DNA from: a virus
Lineage: Duplodnaviria; Heunggongvirae; Uroviricota; Caudoviricetes
Direction: 5' to 3' (one strand)
Length of the DNA stretch: 5,974 nucleotides
Virus record (IMG/VR): IMGVR_UViG_3300029461_000057
Part shown: one piece after another, positions 1 to 5,974 of the stretch
How the letters are laid out: each line of letters opens with the position of its first letter
Position numbering within the stretch: position 1 is the first letter of the stretch
Program-made: the position numbers and the translations under genes
Notes under the pieces: model-generated
The model's input: the letters and a program-made list of their open reading frames with translations, nothing else
Databases searched by the model: none
What the model was told of the DNA's origin: nothing

Positions 1-290
1 CTTTACAGTTAAATCATTTCTTATGCCTTAGTTTCTGATAAAAAAGGTTTTTTTTCACGATTTATAAGTATCAGGTTATGTGAACCGTTCTGAATGTGTA
101 AAAAACGACTGAAAGAAAAGCGGTGGTCCAGACGCCGACAAAAGCACGAACTCGCAAACAAACGCCAAAGTTGGCAATGGCACGCGCTTTTCACGAAAAG
201 AACACCCCGAGATATTGCGTTCGCTGGTGGGAAAACATTCCTGACCCACCTGAAGGCGCAATACATCAGGTTTTAAGCAGAGGAAAGACT

Positions 291-968
291 ATGAATAACA
301 TGACAACGAAAGAGCTTTTGACGGCACTTCCAAAATACAAAAGCCATAAAACAGTTCGCGCCTCAAAAATCAAAGATATCGAAATTATCGCCCTAATGGA
401 TGTGGTCCTTTTTTGCAACATCGAAGTCGTTGAGCCAGAAGGGGTAAAAGTCCATGTTGATAAAATATTTTTGCAAAAACACCGACCAGAAATTGGCGGA
501 TATCTGGTCGCTTATGAGGACGGATCTCTGTCCTATTCACCAGAAAAAACATTTGAAGAAGGCTTTAGTCGGACTAACGACTTCTTCGAAAATGGGGTAT
601 CGCTCAGCATTGAAGGTCACAATGGGGTGACATTCATTACAGCCAGGGACGTAACTATTTCTGCTGGCGGTATCGCTACTCTACAAGAAGAAATCGACCT
701 TGAAGCAGCCGACTTTTCTGACGCGCTGATGTGGCTGAAGGATGGCAAGAAAGTTGCCCGACGCGGGTGGAACGGCGAAAACCAATTCTGCTGGCTGGTT
801 CCTGAAGGACAGTACCCGGCACGAATGGAAGCCATTAAGGGATATTTCCCCGGCGACCTCGTTCCGTATGGTGCTTATTTCGCCTTAAAAAATGCACAAG
901 GTGTAGTTGTTCCGTGGGTTCCTTCTGTAGGCGACTTACTGGCATGTGACTGGTTTGTAGTGGAGTAA
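291..968 (+). CDS. Two-domain hypothetical protein; C-terminal ~80 aa resemble a DUF2829 (Tad2-like) domain, N-terminal ~140 aa unassigned
   Basis: The open frame runs from GTG 123, but ATG 291 is preferred because AGGAAAG (281-287) sits 3-6 nt upstream as a Shine-Dalgarno. Stop TAA at 966-968. C-terminal motifs DALMWLKDGKKVARRGWNG ... PWVPSVGDLLACDWFVV match my recollection of the DUF2829 signature (AL..LK.GKKV.R.GW ... D.LA.DW). Family assignment is from memory, not a search. Confidence 0.75.
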   Translation: MNNMTTKELLTALPKYKSHKTVRASKIKDIEIIALMDVVLFCNIEVVEPEGVKVHVDKIFLQKHRPEIGGYLVAYEDGSLSYSPEKTFEEGFSRTNDFFENGVSLSIEGHNGVTFITARDVTISAGGIATLQEEIDLEAADFSDALMWLKDGKKVARRGWNGENQFCWLVPEGQYPARMEAIKGYFPGDLVPYGAYFALKNAQGVVVPWVPSVGDLLACDWFVVE

Positions 969-974
969 TTTAAC

Positions 975-1757
975 GTGAAAAATACTAAAGCAATTCAATA
1001 CCGCCTGCGTAATGGTCAGAGTGTCGAAGTGACCATCAATAATGATGGTGTGCCTGGCGAAAAGGTTTCGATCTCTGAACTGGCTATCGAAAAAACCATC
1101 ATGTGCCACCTTGGCTTTACTGAAGAAGTGAGCAAAAAGCATGGTGTAGCAATCTGGAGCGCAATGGATACTGGTATGCGCAGATTCATTACTGCTCGTA
1201 CCCCAGGGATGACCATGATGGACCTCATGCAGATTGCGCCGCTGTTTGAATGTGAGCCTTTAGATGTATTCAGCAATCCAGCTATCTGCCAGCAGCTATA
1301 TGGTGAGATGAAACTCGCGGTTACCCCCATTGTGCTGCATGAAGGATCGCTTGCTGGCGTGTGGAAAGTGGAGCGTATTTCAAGCTACATGCCTTTCCAT
1401 GTCAACGGCGTAATCACTGGTGAAAATCAACCTGTTTCCGTTATAAAGTCAGACCTCAAGCGCGCAATTCTTGAAGCAAGTTGTCGAGTTGTCGGCCTGG
1501 GCAAACAGTCTTATGTTTCCTTCCCGGCTGGCCCTGAAGGCCCGGCAGAAATTCTGATTATGGATGCCGATCTGCTCTGGCAAATACAGTTTCTGATTGG
1601 CAAAAGCATCATCCGCGCTGAAGAACTCGATCAGTACATTACCTGCACGATGACGGATGAAGTCAAAAGTGTGGCTATAGCCAATGCCCGGAACCTATGT
1701 CGTGCTGCATTAACAGAACTGCAAGAAAACACCACGGAAGAAGTGGAAAGCGATTAA
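975..1757 (+). CDS. Hypothetical protein (260 aa), no recognisable motif; likely co-transcribed with the upstream gene
   Basis: GTG start at 975 lies 6 nt after the upstream stop, with GGAG (962-965) 9 nt upstream. Uninterrupted 260-codon frame ending TAA 1755-1757, immediately followed by the terminator hairpin. The only antisense ORF (1016..1330) is short and lacks a plausible RBS. Confidence 0.7.
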   Translation: MKNTKAIQYRLRNGQSVEVTINNDGVPGEKVSISELAIEKTIMCHLGFTEEVSKKHGVAIWSAMDTGMRRFITARTPGMTMMDLMQIAPLFECEPLDVFSNPAICQQLYGEMKLAVTPIVLHEGSLAGVWKVERISSYMPFHVNGVITGENQPVSVIKSDLKRAILEASCRVVGLGKQSYVSFPAGPEGPAEILIMDADLLWQIQFLIGKSIIRAEELDQYITCTMTDEVKSVAIANARNLCRAALTELQENTTEEVESD

Positions 1758-1787
1758 AAAAAATCCCGCCGACTGGCGGGATTTCTT
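1756..1787. terminator. Bidirectional rho-independent terminator between convergent operons
   Basis: Perfect 10-bp inverted repeat AAATCCCGCC (1761-1770) / GGCGGGATTT (1775-1784) with 4-nt loop GACT. On the minus-strand transcript the hairpin is followed by an 8-U run (complement of A 1756-1763). On the plus strand it is followed by TTTCTT. It sits exactly between the stop codons at 1755-1757 (+) and 1787-1789 (-). Confidence 0.85.
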
Positions 1788-2098
1788 CAATATACGATCT
1801 GGTCTACATGATCACCAAAATCATCGTCGTCGTCGTCCTCATCGCCACCATCTACTGCTGGCCAATCAACAAACCAGCCAGCGTAAAGATGCAGCGTTCG
1901 GAGAACATCACTTGCGGGAGCATCAAGGGTGTTAACGAATCCCATATAGCTATTGGGATTTGCCCCAGCTATGGCTTCAGCGATCATGTCCTCGGTAATG
2001 TCACCGGAGATAATGCTTAAACGCCCGGAAACTTCTTCATTATCATCAAATTCGATAATGGCATCTCCACCTAATGGCGCTGCGATTTTAATCTGCAT
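1787..2098 (-). CDS. Small highly acidic protein (103 aa) with C-terminal poly-Asp tail; translationally coupled to the upstream large gene
   Basis: ATG at 2096-2098 (minus) is preceded by AAGGAG (complement of 2106-2111) with 7-nt spacing. The start overlaps the last 8 nt of the 995-aa ORF. Stop TGA (1787-1789) abuts the terminator. The protein ends ...DGGDEDDDDDDFGDHVDQIVY. Confidence 0.75.
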   Translation of the reverse strand: MQIKIAAPLGGDAIIEFDDNEEVSGRLSIISGDITEDMIAEAIAGANPNSYMGFVNTLDAPASDVLRTLHLYAGWFVDWPAVDGGDEDDDDDDFGDHVDQIVY

Positions 2099-5075
2099 TA
2101 TTTAGCTCCTTTGCCACACCTAATAACAGTTCCAGCAATCCGTCACCATTCATCAGTGATGCGGCAGCGGCCTCTTTGTCATGATACAACTGAAGAGCCA
2201 TAGAGAATACTTCCGTTGCTGACGTTTTGGAAATAGTCGGTGATTTCTGCCGAATTTTCCCGGTGTTACTTACTGAGGCTGGCGGGTATACCTTCGCCAT
2301 ATAAATATTACTCAATCGAGATCTGAAGCACCATTCAGGCTTGCCACGCCCACCGATATTGACGAAAGATGGCTTATCCCCTTCAACATTGGCCTTCAGG
2401 AATGACCGGGCTTTCTCTAACAAACCAGGGTTACTGTACTCAAGATGATGACCCAGCTCGTGCCACAGTGCACTTGCATTTTCATCGTTCAAATTGACAG
2501 CAACAACACCATTAAGATTTGCATATGCCCTTCCCTGGTGGTGAACTACCTTTGATAAGGTCGATATTTTCCCGCCGGTCAGGCGATAAATATCAGCAAG
2601 TTCCTTGCGCAGGTCTATCCCACCATTCTGTCCAGCGCGGGCTTCTTCCACTTCTTCTGTGATAAAAGAGTCGGCCCACTCAAGAGCTTTTTCTTCAGAT
2701 ACGGATGAGTTTGCGATCGCACTGTTCATGGCAGATAACACTTTCTCGTGGACCGAACCCATACTTCGCTGATTCATTTGCCAGCGTATCTGCGGGTTAT
2801 ATGAGAATCGCTTAAGTAGTTGGTCAAGCTGCTCAAGTTCTTCTTCACTGACATACTTTTTAGCCTCACCAATAATGCCAGGGAGAATATTGCCGTTAGG
2901 ATTAAACGCTCGCGAAAGGAAGAGTTTCAGCGCCCCCATGCCCTCCGATGCTTCAATATCACCAATAACCCGGTTAACAATGGCCGCACTCTTCGGATTA
3001 GCATCCGCCAACGCTCTGGCTACGATTTGCAGGGACGATACGACCTCACGCTGCATATCCGTCCTGATCTCATCAATAAACTCTGGCGTTATGCCGTGCT
3101 CTTTAAGGATATCCCTGCCTTCCGCCGTTACCCCATCGATATCACCGACATGTTTATTAACCCGACTTTGCAATGCCTTAAATGCCTTCAGAATTCCACG
3201 GGCATCATCCGCTTTACTAACGGCCTTCCTGAATGCTGGCAAGAAGTCTGAGTTAACCTCATTTTGTTGATCGGCCCACTGAATGGAGGCTTCTTTCATC
3301 TCGTCCAGAGTCAGATCACCCAACGCGGTATGGTCTGTGAATATGAGCGACAACCTCTGAATCATTTCTGCCAATGGTGATGCCGAATGCGCCGCGCTAA
3401 GGAATGCTTTCACCCTGGTTGGGCGAATGGAAAACCAGTCAATAGCTGGTGGCATATCTCCGTTTTTTATCGCCTGCGCTATCTCATCAAAGCCGTCGCG
3501 CCCAAGGGAGGATGCGTGATTTAACAATCCGCGAAGTAACGAATTGCTGATACCGAATAATCGGCACCATTTATTCACGTCGGCAACAGGCATTCGAACA
3601 AAATGCGCAAGCACTTGTACAAGCTGTTCATCCTGGGGATCTGTACGGGAAAGCAGCCTGATCAGATGAATAATGTCTTTGATGCCGGATGCCCGATGTA
3701 ATAGCAAGCTGGTATATGGAGCAACACCGTTGTAACTACCGCCGGAAACGGACTCGAAAAGACCGCCGGATATCCCTTGCATGCCTTCGTTTTCCAGTTC
3801 CTGAGACACCTGGCGAAGGATATCCTGTAACGACACATCACCACCGCCAAACATATCCCCCAGCGCCTGGCCCTGGTGCTGTAACTCATCATTGATACGT
3901 TGAGCCATCAATTTAAAGGCGGTGGCCATACGCTTCGCGCTACGGTTATTCGCGACGATGAACAACGCGAGTGCTTTCACTTCCGGGGCCGTTTCGCTGA
4001 ACATATCCCCCTGAGCAATAACATCGGTAATATGCTGGCCTGACTCCTTCGATTGCCTTACCAGGTCTACCGCATCTTTCAATGCCGCCAGCGCCTTTTT
4101 ATCGAGGCTATCCGCTGTCTCAATGCCATCAACAATAGTTGTCACAGCCTGCTTGTGCGCTTCTCCTGATAAAGCCTGCATCTGGACAAAATCATTGGCT
4201 GCCGCATTAAGCGCCGTCAGAACATTACGCATATCCGGATCAGGTTCTTCTGCAACCATCCTTACCAGGCGCGCATCCTTATATGCCTTGGCAAAGATCG
4301 CGTTTTGTATACGGTCTACAAGTTGCCGTGTTGGTCGCCCATCTTCAGTTACAAGGCCAGCCGCCTGTGTGGCACCAACTTGCGTCATAAATCCGCGAAT
4401 AAACGCGTCATTACTGCGGCTAAGCAGATCTCCACTTTCTGACGGGTTAAACAACGCCATCATCGCCGGTGTTATGCTGTCGGCATCAACAAAAGCCTTT
4501 TCACTGGCTGCCATTTCCTGGAGATCAGAAATATTTGAGTCCTTGGCAAACTGAACACGGTCAACCTTAGTTAACCGGCGGCGCACCAGTACCGGAGCCG
4601 TCATTGATTCAACCTTTTCAGGAGGTATGCCGAATTCGGTCGCATGTTCAATCAGGTACTCACGATACCGATCCGCATTGCCGTCCTGATAGGCTTTGAT
4701 GATCCCCATGGTCCGTCCATTACCTGACTCAACGGCATTGTCCTCACCAATTATCGGCGCGCCATGGCTGGATAAACCGGAATCAGTAAGCTGAGCAGGC
4801 CGCAAATCTTTGGATATCTGGTTAACCTGAAGAAGGCTGGATGCGCGGGTCCGGTCGCGCGGTTGAAGTTCCTGGGGATAGTCAGGATTAATTTTCCCAT
4901 CCAGAGTATTGGATACCAAAAGAGCTGAGGCATCGACGATATCAAACGCTGTTTTTACCTCGTCTCCCTTCGCTGTCACCACATACGAAACCCGCCCATA
5001 ATCGGGCAGGTTCTTTAGCAGCTCGATCAGCGTTTCTATGCTGGTGGCCATTACCACCTGATCGCTTAAGCTCAT
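2088..5075 (-). CDS. Large multidomain protein (995 aa): N-terminal ParB/sulfiredoxin-like region plus C-terminal HExxH zincin-like metallopeptidase motif; polyvalent-protein-like architecture
   Basis: Single uninterrupted 2988-nt frame with coding-like composition; every overlapping opposite-strand ORF is under 150 aa. Residues ~60-130 read INPDYPQELQPRDRTRASS ... GAPIIGEDNAVESGNGRTMGIIKAY, which parallels the ParB N-domain pattern (P.QPR ... PI.V ... GERR.RA). HELGHH is encoded at 2445-2462 (minus) in the context NASALWHELGHHLEY. The start is ATG 5073-5075, with Met9 at 5049-5051 as an alternative; neither has a strong SD. Confidence 0.9.
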   Translation of the reverse strand: MSLSDQVVMATSIETLIELLKNLPDYGRVSYVVTAKGDEVKTAFDIVDASALLVSNTLDGKINPDYPQELQPRDRTRASSLLQVNQISKDLRPAQLTDSGLSSHGAPIIGEDNAVESGNGRTMGIIKAYQDGNADRYREYLIEHATEFGIPPEKVESMTAPVLVRRRLTKVDRVQFAKDSNISDLQEMAASEKAFVDADSITPAMMALFNPSESGDLLSRSNDAFIRGFMTQVGATQAAGLVTEDGRPTRQLVDRIQNAIFAKAYKDARLVRMVAEEPDPDMRNVLTALNAAANDFVQMQALSGEAHKQAVTTIVDGIETADSLDKKALAALKDAVDLVRQSKESGQHITDVIAQGDMFSETAPEVKALALFIVANNRSAKRMATAFKLMAQRINDELQHQGQALGDMFGGGDVSLQDILRQVSQELENEGMQGISGGLFESVSGGSYNGVAPYTSLLLHRASGIKDIIHLIRLLSRTDPQDEQLVQVLAHFVRMPVADVNKWCRLFGISNSLLRGLLNHASSLGRDGFDEIAQAIKNGDMPPAIDWFSIRPTRVKAFLSAAHSASPLAEMIQRLSLIFTDHTALGDLTLDEMKEASIQWADQQNEVNSDFLPAFRKAVSKADDARGILKAFKALQSRVNKHVGDIDGVTAEGRDILKEHGITPEFIDEIRTDMQREVVSSLQIVARALADANPKSAAIVNRVIGDIEASEGMGALKLFLSRAFNPNGNILPGIIGEAKKYVSEEELEQLDQLLKRFSYNPQIRWQMNQRSMGSVHEKVLSAMNSAIANSSVSEEKALEWADSFITEEVEEARAGQNGGIDLRKELADIYRLTGGKISTLSKVVHHQGRAYANLNGVVAVNLNDENASALWHELGHHLEYSNPGLLEKARSFLKANVEGDKPSFVNIGGRGKPEWCFRSRLSNIYMAKVYPPASVSNTGKIRQKSPTISKTSATEVFSMALQLYHDKEAAAASLMNGDGLLELLLGVAKELNNAD

Positions 5076-5102
5076 CCCTGTTACGCCTTATCCAATGTGC
5101 CG

Positions 5103-5126
5103 CCCCCTACGCTCCTCATAGTGGGG
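5103..5126 (+). other. Candidate imperfect hairpin (7-bp stem with one bulged T, 9-nt loop); possible IS200/IS605 left-end subterminal hairpin
   Basis: CCCCCTA (5103-5109) pairs with TAG(T)GGGG (5119-5126) if T5122 is extrahelical; loop CGCTCCTCA. It lies ~50 nt upstream of the tnpB start, where left-end hairpins of this IS family sit. Weak, judged by eye. Confidence 0.25.
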
Positions 5127-5174
5127 ATATAAGGCACAGTTTTCCTCCCGGCTATTTTTGCTTAAAATAGTGAC

Positions 5175-5974
5175 ATGAAACAACAGGTGTCATTCAAATT
5201 CCGGTTAAAACCAGATGGTCAACAGGAGCGTCAAATGAGGCGCTTTGCCGGAGCTTGTCGTTTCGTTTTCAACCGTGCTCTGGCGCTTCAGAATGAGAAT
5301 CATGAGGCCGGTAAAAAATACATCCCTTACACGAAAATGGCTTCCTGGTTGGTTGAGTGGAAAAAAGACACTGAAACCGAATGGCTTAAAGATTCTCCCT
5401 CACAGCCATTGCAACAGTCACTGAAAGACCTTGAGCGGGCTTACAAAAACTTCTTCCAGAATCGGGCAGCTTTTCCCCGATTCAAAAAGCGGGGACAGAA
5501 TGATGCATTCCGCTACCCGCAGGGTGTTAAGCTCGATCAGGAAAACAGCCGTATTTTTCTGCCGAAACTTGGCTGGATGCGCTACCGGAATAGCCGTCAG
5601 GTCACGGGTATTGTGAAAAATGTTACTGTCAGCCAGTCCTGCGGTAAGTGGTACATCAGTATTCAGACAGAAAGAGAGGTATCCACTCCTGTTCACCCTT
5701 CAGCATCAATGGTCGGACTGGATGCTGGCGTGGCTAAACTCGCCACGCTGTCAGATGGCACAGTCTTTGAACCTGTAAATAGTTTTCAGAAAAACCAGAA
5801 GAAGCTGGCGAGACTTCAGCGACAGTTAAGCCGCAAGGTCAAATTCAGCAACAACTGGCAGAAGCAGAAACGCAAAATACAGCGACTGCATTCCCGTATC
5901 GCAAATATCCGCAGGGACTACCTTCACAAAGTCACAACGACCGTCAGCAAAAACCACGCAATGATTGTCATTGA
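5175..5974 (+). CDS. tnpB: IS200/IS605-family TnpB (RNA-guided endonuclease / OrfB), 5' portion; continues past the window end
   Basis: ATG at 5175-5177 opens a frame that runs to the window edge (266 codons, no stop). Translation MKQQVSFKFRLKPDGQQERQMRRFAGACRFVFNRAL ... MVGLDAGVAKLATLSDG is typical of the TnpB N-terminal region, and GLDAG (5715-5729) is the RuvC-I motif with the catalytic Asp. It is missing from the supplied ORF track only because it has no stop inside the window. Confidence 0.9.
   Translation, partial: MKQQVSFKFRLKPDGQQERQMRRFAGACRFVFNRALALQNENHEAGKKYIPYTKMASWLVEWKKDTETEWLKDSPSQPLQQSLKDLERAYKNFFQNRAAFPRFKKRGQNDAFRYPQGVKLDQENSRIFLPKLGWMRYRNSRQVTGIVKNVTVSQSCGKWYISIQTEREVSTPVHPSASMVGLDAGVAKLATLSDGTVFEPVNSFQKNQKKLARLQRQLSRKVKFSNNWQKQKRKIQRLHSRIANIRRDYLHKVTTTVSKNHAMIVI

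Follow-up and report, generated by a model that had tools for sequence, protein, structure and literature searches.

Hxr, a small protein with an acidic tail encoded next to ddrB in P1-like phage-plasmids, is a candidate partner of the DdrB zinc peptidase

Genes for MuF polymorphic toxins are followed in 89% of cases by an open reading frame (ORF) of less than 150 amino acids (aa), which is read as an immunity gene, and 20% of these toxin genes encode metallopeptidase domains (PMC5576092). In phage P1, the internal head proteins DarA, Hdf, DdrA, DdrB, DarB and Ulx leave the capsid together with the DNA and guard it against type I restriction, and the known Dar phenotypes are credited to these six proteins, among which Hxr is not counted (PMC9024508, PMC12810830); the Dar proteins are incorporated sequentially (PMC12810830). 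One of them, DdrB, contains a domain designated MPTase by Iyer et al. 2017, who suggested that this domain is responsible for the autoprocessing of DdrB into the 76-kDa form that is packaged (PMC5512222). Here, we analysed a stretch of DNA of 5974 bp from the IMG/VR virus record IMGVR_UViG_3300029461_000057 (hereafter the window, i.e., the whole stretch), which contains a 995-aa gene given as ddrB in annotated records and, overlapping its 3' end, a 103-aa ORF given as hxr in P1 (P1_gp021 Hxr) and odaA (OdaA) in P7. The window displays 99% identity to P1-like phage-plasmids (e.g., Salmonella phage SJ46 and many E. coli plasmids) and ~97% identity to phage P1 across the shared parts, and annotation places both genes in the late operon lydA-lydB-hdf-darA-ddrA-ddrB-hxr, driven by the late promoter LPdar.

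The hxr gene is already known and named. The P1 record describes it as 'possible repressor; homolog of Xre', and the repressor label also appears in SJ46, RCS47 and many plasmids. Interference based on clustered regularly interspaced short palindromic repeats (CRISPRi) scored hxr as non-essential for plaque formation (PMC10695390), and our literature search found no experimental work on hxr beyond this non-essentiality and no paper on Hxr function. Sequence comparisons would assign the gene to a known kind, namely the small cognate ORF of a phage-packaged effector domain. We propose that Hxr may be a dedicated, immunity-like inhibitor or latency chaperone of the C-terminal zinc peptidase of DdrB (with a probability of about 0.45), because the pattern matches that of a MuF polymorphic toxin and its downstream ORF as described by Jamet et al. 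2017.

Linkage of hxr to the peptidase half of ddrB

In the window, the two genes and their junction comprise the following features (nt, nucleotides):
2088..5075, minus strand: ddrB, 995 aa; a virion-packaged polyvalent protein composed of a DdrB-ParB domain at the N-terminus, a helical middle region and, at the C-terminus, a zincin peptidase (MPTase)
2448..2462, minus strand: HELGH zinc-binding motif (DdrB residues 872-876), invariant in 11 lineages
2211..2435, minus strand: basic peptidase insert (DdrB residues 881-955), between HExxH and E955
1787..2098, minus strand: hxr coding sequence, 103 aa plus stop; annotated equivalents P1_gp021 Hxr and P7 OdaA; intact in 88/88 loci
2106..2111, minus strand: Shine-Dalgarno sequence of hxr (AAGGAG), 7 nt before the ATG and inside conserved K-E-L codons of the DdrB C-terminus
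1757..1788, no strand: bidirectional intrinsic-terminator hairpin (A-tract, GC stem, U-tract), with a folding energy of -21 kcal/mol and z = -4.85

The small acidic ORF, its ATG overlapping the large gene by 8 nt, the AAGGAG and the poly-Asp C-terminus are all present as the initial annotation had described them. Indeed, the ATG of hxr (2096-2098) overlaps the last 8 coding nt of ddrB and its stop codon, 11 nt in total, and among related loci the hxr start overlaps the ddrB stop by 11-17 nt, with gene order and overlap kept in 88/88 loci as well as in the most divergent members for which sufficient flanking sequence was available (31-43% identity). The proposed translational coupling to the large gene also holds, since the overlap is kept in every lineage and the Shine-Dalgarno sequence lies inside the K-E-L codons, a placement found at the junctions of other lineages too. 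The hairpin stands directly after the hxr stop, facing the convergent gene 975..1757, and could terminate both genes; a terminator pattern scan missed it and folding revealed it, and equivalent hairpins trail hxr in other lineages. Because such a strong terminator hairpin lies directly 3' of its stop, hxr is the last gene of the darA operon, and the genes found beyond this point differ by lineage (porin, Arc-like, DUF905, CHAP, AAA_21 ATPase). The gene was intact in all related loci with a full-length ddrB (88/88), the ratio of non-synonymous to synonymous substitution rates (dN/dS) of its core was 0.09-0.5 in comparisons with unsaturated dS only, and the variant codons of hxr within the P1 group were 15 synonymous and 13 non-synonymous. 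hxr is a real gene under purifying selection.

Elements with only one half of DdrB suggest to which part of this protein hxr is attached. In Cronobacter and Klebsiella elements, DdrB consists of the C-terminal half only (558 aa, without ParB) and an overlapping hxr is kept (net charge of the product -17), while in Enterobacter and Pantoea elements with the N-terminal half only (458-460 aa), no hxr was found within ~2.7-3 kb downstream. From these comparisons, Hxr appears to go with the zincin-bearing half of DdrB and not with the ParB half. In addition, one P1-like metagenomic contig (L097) shows ~98% nucleotide identity to the window up to DdrB residue ~880, and identity of 53-82% from residue ~888 through the end of ddrB and hxr, the Hxr protein being 62% identical and duplicated. 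On its left, this divergent cassette begins exactly at the insert that separates HExxH from the third zinc ligand; the peptidase insert and hxr seem to have diverged jointly as a single cassette.

The third zinc ligand of DdrB, E955 in the TEVFSM motif, is invariant in the 11 lineages, as is HELGH. The AlphaFold model of the DdrB C-terminal half (predicted local distance difference test, pLDDT, of 74) gave no significant Foldseek match in the PDB, and a profile search of PDB sequences was also without match; the zincin assignment is consequently based on Iyer et al. 2017 and on the HExxH...E motif, which is invariant. No other stretch of DdrB, an otherwise acidic protein, is as basic as the insert, which carries +5 to +10 per 84-89 aa in 10/10 hxr-bearing lineages. 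Note that DdrB is a mosaic with breaks at residues ~450 and ~880 (window ~3728 and ~2435). As an example, the DdrB of Cronobacter phage JK004 is 90% identical to that of the window over the N-terminal 449 residues, 31% in the middle and 51% in the peptidase. Alignments of this kind indicate a much higher rate of evolution, or of exchange, for the C-terminal half of DdrB than for the ParB half.

Using the peptidase domain as bait, we gathered distant homologues from metagenomic and viral contigs, giving 48 distinct MPTase ORFs, 36 of which are followed by an ORF of 70-135 aa. These small ORFs overlap the peptidase stop in 30/36 cases and have a net charge of -5 or below in 26/36. Controls (other ORFs of at least 200 aa from the same loci) gave 18/107 and 6/107 (Fisher p = 3.5e-11), p-values being indicative only because the loci are not phylogenetically independent. 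A C-terminal [hydrophobic][Y/N/T/S/F]-COOH occurs in 20/36 small ORFs (9% expected by composition), several end with acidic residues followed by (I/V/L)-I-Y, to be compared with QIVY in P1, and a poly-Asp or poly-Glu tail occurs in two. At several additional loci, this small domain is found as the N-terminal part of a larger protein encoded downstream. The N-terminal domains of the peptidase carriers vary (ParB, MuF, minor-capsid or none recognisable), which argues that the small ORF tracks the peptidase and not its carrier. The small ORFs fell into two BLAST clusters plus singletons, the clusters being joined by hhalign (probability 93%, E = 3.6e-7), and ten representatives matched no Pfam or PHROG family. 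One aligned and undescribed family (A7; ~85-118 aa, mostly acidic) is found immediately after DdrB-type MPTase genes in uncultured phages (L104-L141, L183-L208), with the motifs G-x-F-G-H ... T-x-I-D-L-D-x-A-L and often ending in P-x-G-A-V-T/S-COOH. As judged from these loci, pairing with a small ORF is common for DdrB-type peptidases. Together with the linkage of hxr to the peptidase half and the joint divergence in L097, these small acidic ORFs beside distant peptidases make a chaperone or inhibitor of the large partner, one of the roles first suggested for the 103-aa product, the reading best supported by sequence comparison.

A folded core and a conserved acidic tail in Hxr

Two parts of the protein and one repeat within its gene were distinguished:
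1853..2098, minus strand: Hxr folded core (residues 1-82), predicted as beta-beta-beta-alpha-loop-alpha-beta, with a pLDDT of 84-91 for most 10-residue blocks and 71 at residues 21-30
1790..1852, minus strand: Hxr disordered polyanionic tail (residues 83-103), net charge -11, with the hydrophobic tip IVY-COOH
1820..1843, minus strand: GAT/GAC/GAG repeat encoding DEDDDDDD, an in-frame Asp run of 4 to 8 in near-identical P1-like elements

The 103 residues of Hxr include 18 Asp, 6 Glu, 1 Lys and 2 Arg (net charge -21, isoelectric point (pI) 4.05), and the protein ends in ...DEDDDDDDFGDHVDQIVY. Its AlphaFold model, built from a 28-sequence alignment, has a mean pLDDT of 76 and displays strands at residues 2-6, 12-16 and 28-32, helices at 36-44 and 62-71, a short strand at the W..WP motif and a conserved loop around G53, with a pLDDT below 50 for residues 88-103. 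Neither a solved structure nor a fold relative was found for this model. Pfam contained no family for the Hxr of the window at E <= 1, NCBIfam and PADLOC gave no match, and among PHROGs the only match was phrog_2292, whose function is unknown.

Homologues were collected with two very large protein searches, including an exhaustive HMMER search over 1.8 billion representatives, and form ~40 clusters at 90% identity and ~20 clusters at 50% identity. Three FG-GAP/VCBS repeat proteins returned by HMMER (P0041, P0046, P0047) were compositional matches and were discarded. All placeable homologues belong to P1-like elements of Enterobacterales, with identity down to 31% and with length (95-105 aa), synteny and motifs kept. 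The invariant residues are G53, L66, R67, W75, W79 and P80 (alignment A2). The tails of the family are 20-25 aa long with a net charge of -6 to -13, only 3 of their 629 residues being Lys or Arg; a mid-tail aromatic residue is frequent, the penultimate residue is V in 26/28 members, and the hydrophobic tip is I-V-Y for the P1 group, most others having I-V-N or a near variant. The initial annotation had described the product as acidic throughout, which is true of the P1 lineage (core -10, tail -11) but not of the family, in which the tail alone is consistently acidic and the core charge, ranging from -1 to -10, is not conserved. The acidic tail with its fixed tip is a distinctive and testable feature of Hxr.

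The Asp run itself is a GAY trinucleotide repeat, encoding anything from 4 to 8 Asp in elements that are ~99% identical (L001-L092), and alternative tails also occur in this set (e.g., ...DDDDDEEVFSDETVNQLLY), so that the tail is variable while the rest of the protein is almost invariant. The duplicated copy in L097 (P0015; 4001-4555) is a tandem Hxr-Hxr of 184 aa located after ddrB, with a TTG start and two cores, the first copy being followed by a short acidic linker (DDEEDLIV) and the second by a full tail; this arrangement may mean that Hxr acts as a dimer.

The database label of Xre-like repressor is wrong for Hxr and fails every test. No HTH (helix-turn-helix) family was found for any of the 28 members at E <= 10, hhalign of Hxr against a genuine neighbouring XRE protein gave a probability of 0.1%, and three beta strands plus two helices are predicted where such repressors have a five-helix, all-alpha bundle with a basic recognition surface. 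Moreover, Hxr is far too acidic for DNA binding, considering its pI and net charge. An Xre-type repressor, perhaps paired with the DdrB peptidase as ImmR is with ImmA, could draw on the 28% identity over 58 residues to Xre cited in the original annotation and on the metallopeptidase encoded next door; beyond the missing HTH, the wrong predicted fold and the acidity, it is contradicted by the late expression of hxr as terminal gene of a structural operon, and we consider it already effectively refuted.

The disordered, acidic tail with a hydrophobic end also recalls the SSB C-terminal tip, as the initial annotation had noted, and this resemblance stands for composition only, the D-D-D-I-P-F consensus and the OB (oligonucleotide/oligosaccharide-binding) fold being absent. 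That the tail mimics this tip, and recruits or titrates ExoI, RecQ, PriA or the chi subunit, is very improbable, because it ends in I-V-Y or I-V-N without Pro-Phe, P1-like elements carry their own ssb nearby, and the family-wide link is to the peptidase rather than to replication genes.

A putative control of DdrB in the producing cell

If Hxr is an inhibitor or latency chaperone of DdrB, it would be made late from the darA operon, translationally coupled to ddrB, and its ~80-residue alpha/beta core would bind the peptidase domain. The polyanionic tail (~22 residues) might dock on the basic insert flanking the active site, which would bring the hydrophobic C-terminal tip in or near the peptidase cleft. 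In this way, Hxr could set the time at which DdrB cleaves itself or other proteins within the producing cell; as DdrB is packed into the head, Hxr would probably be left out. The tail is the conserved acidic element of Hxr, and the insert is the most basic part of DdrB in every hxr-bearing lineage. The published list of P1 virion proteins contains DdrB and not Hxr (PMC9024508). However, this virion proteomics used a two-peptide threshold (PMC9024508), and the tryptic peptides of Hxr have 4, 22, 41 and 36 aa, one of which is of convenient size; the absence of Hxr is therefore weak evidence.

The same observations bear on two other roles. Hxr could be an assembly chaperone or adaptor that keeps DdrB or another Dar protein soluble, or hands it over to the DarA/Hdf scaffold in the procapsid, without effect on the peptidase and leaving on DNA entry. 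The hxr-ddrB linkage applies equally here, as do the late expression beside sequentially incorporated Dar proteins and the absence from the list of the mature virion, and an acidic protein would presumably be expelled by the incoming DNA. Nevertheless, the link follows the peptidase whatever the N-terminal head-targeting domain (ParB, MuF, minor capsid), which fits the control of an enzyme better, and no plating phenotype was seen, so that we regard this role as unlikely. Alternatively, Hxr could be packaged and ejected with the DNA as an extra Dar effector, its tail or the whole protein imitating nucleic acid or acting as a decoy towards host restriction enzymes or other defence proteins that bind DNA. 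The location of hxr within an operon defending against type I restriction, the net charge of -21 and the weakness of the proteomic absence would all suit a decoy. Nonetheless, neither profiles nor folds relate Hxr to Ocr, to ArdA or to another DNA mimic of solved structure, its folded core has not conserved its acidity (some lineages have a core charge of -1) and half of its charge resides in the disordered tail. In addition, Hxr is not reported in virions, the known Dar phenotypes have their six other proteins, and similar small ORFs follow the peptidase domain in unrelated phages; we consider this decoy rather improbable. The idea of DNA mimicry, raised initially by analogy with Ocr and ArdA, has to be dropped as far as family membership is concerned, given the missing profile or fold match and the unconserved core acidity.

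Several observations weigh against a control of the peptidase by Hxr. First, CRISPRi knock-down of hxr or ddrB gave no plating defect (PMC10695390), while an unopposed toxic peptidase might have been expected to lower the yield. Second, processing of DdrB to 76 kDa reportedly precedes its packaging (PMC5512222), so the peptidase, if responsible, is not fully silenced in the producer. Third, the genetic linkage has its limits: the half-gene variants are contiguous deletions, for which the same pattern is expected without a functional link, the L097 cassette is one event, and the conserved hxr-ddrB adjacency is partly inherited since all Hxr homologues are found in one syntenic phage lineage. 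Within the P1 group, no association of Hxr tail variants with DdrB insert substitutions was found, and the values obtained for tail charge and insert charge showed no graded correlation. Finally, the small ORFs beside distant peptidases have no detectable homology to Hxr (best HMMER score 3.2 bits, hhalign probability <= 1.9%), and because homology is not demonstrable the parallel is one of position, size, charge and C-terminal pattern only.

On a broader scale, the virion-destined zincins of polyvalent proteins (DdrB, MuF-MPTase and relatives) might be kept latent by a co-translated small partner, whose flexible acidic tail and fixed hydrophobic tip would obstruct the active-site cleft or else a basic exosite, in the manner of a tethered inhibitor such as hirudin. 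We regard this generalisation as speculative and doubtful. If true, it would amount to a general and undescribed timing switch, in which the injected enzyme is freed only on parting from its partner during packaging or ejection, and Hxr would become the seventh, regulatory component of the P1 Dar system.

Neighbouring genes and comparison with described systems

The window differs from reference P1 at several places. On its right side (~5092-5974, plus strand) lies an IS200/IS605-family TnpB (InsQ) gene, with tnpB starting at 5175 and running off the right end, whose product contains the HTH_OrfB_IS605 and OrfB_IS605 domains. This IS605-family insertion is located between ddrA and ddrB, ~16 nt upstream of the ddrB start and in the opposite orientation, and places ddrB-hxr ~1.3 kb apart from the remaining darA operon and LPdar; in this IS605 variant, ddrB-hxr would be expressed only by read-through or from a new promoter. 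It is a common variant, since 138 E. coli records each cover 80% or more of the window. At the left side, positions 1-84 have no match to SJ46 or P1 (which have the end of ssb there) and contain no open frame, so the left junction differs. A 281-aa ORF at 123-968 (plus strand) has a Tad2-like C-terminal part (DUF2829, anti-Thoeris; PF11195, E = 2.5e-22). Reference P1 is without window 295-978, and P1 'IsaA' corresponds to the first 65 residues of this ORF fused to the 975-1757 gene; therefore, the SJ46-type arrangement carries a candidate anti-Thoeris gene lost from P1. Within ddrB, a 143-aa antisense ORF (4123-4554, plus strand) stands where P1 annotates 'iddB' (P1_gp116), and no independent evidence for a gene was seen. 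The region from the hxr terminator to ssb/lyz is a variable cargo spot of P1-like elements (L006, L093, L097, L098, L100), in which we found the porin gene nmpC/ompD (P7-like elements), an Arc-like gene, DUF905, CHAP/TIGR02594 genes and an AAA_21/AAA_15 ATPase gene pair, the latter (L100, 7052-9516) resembling a defence system.

In bacterial genetics, phage P1 serves as a workhorse, and the Dar system of this phage is the model for capsid-injected anti-restriction proteins. The repressor label on hxr, present in hundreds of phage and plasmid records, can be corrected, and DdrB autoprocessing gains a concrete regulatory candidate. The pairing of a peptidase gene with a small acidic ORF is repeated in many uncultured phages and has no match among Pfam or PHROG families. 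Should the partner be an inhibitor, this would account for the transport of active peptidases to the next host without harm to the phage's own assembly, and the partner would be a small, specific and genetically encoded zincin inhibitor. Altogether, our analysis offers a lead for specialists in P1 Dar and polyvalent proteins, and not a new category.

When compared to described systems, the pair ImmR/ImmA resembles the locus in that a small protein is encoded beside an HExxH peptidase, a comparison invited by the historical label of Xre homologue, whereas Hxr is a late gene product without HTH and is not basic. Ocr (T7 gp0.3) and ArdA are, like Hxr, small and very acidic proteins of mobile elements, and the anti-type-I-restriction context is shared; in contrast to them, Hxr shows no sequence or fold relation, does not carry its charge on a conserved rigid scaffold, is expressed late and is not in the virion list, and both were excluded as relatives because of the predicted fold of Hxr and the negative family searches. 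Disordered docking peptides that end in hydrophobic or aromatic residues are known from the C-terminal tip of SSB and from the acidic tails of gp2.5 and gp4 in phage T7. The Hxr tail is alike in its disorder, acidity and hydrophobic/aromatic end, and differs from them by the lack of D-D-D-I-P-F, of an OB fold and of a link to replication.

Hirudin inhibits thrombin by means of a compact core, which obstructs the protease, and of an acidic tail, which occupies a basic exosite. Hxr likewise combines a compact core with a ~20-residue disordered acidic tail containing aromatic/hydrophobic residues, and DdrB has a basic segment beside its active site; the likeness is a functional analogy only, without homology, since DdrB is a zincin and thrombin a serine protease, and the Hxr-DdrB interaction is hypothetical. 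To our knowledge, there is no MPTase partner with demonstrated neutralisation. The closest likeness in gene arrangement is with the putative immunity ORFs of MuF toxins (PMC5576092) and, more generally, with the immunity genes of polymorphic toxin systems. The MuF-associated ORFs, like hxr, have less than 150 aa, are without known domain and lie immediately 3' of a virion-packaged multidomain protein with a C-terminal enzyme; ~20% of their toxins have metallopeptidase domains. Hxr may be inherited with the C-terminal and not the N-terminal domain, as seen in few events, on contiguous DNA and with no covariation in the P1 group. In contrast to the MuF systems, the carrier of Hxr is the DdrB-ParB polyvalent protein of the P1 Dar system, its peptidase is interpreted as an autoprocessing domain and not as a toxin, and the small partner, whose neutralising role is putative, ends in a conserved polyanionic tail whose hydrophobic tip is fixed.

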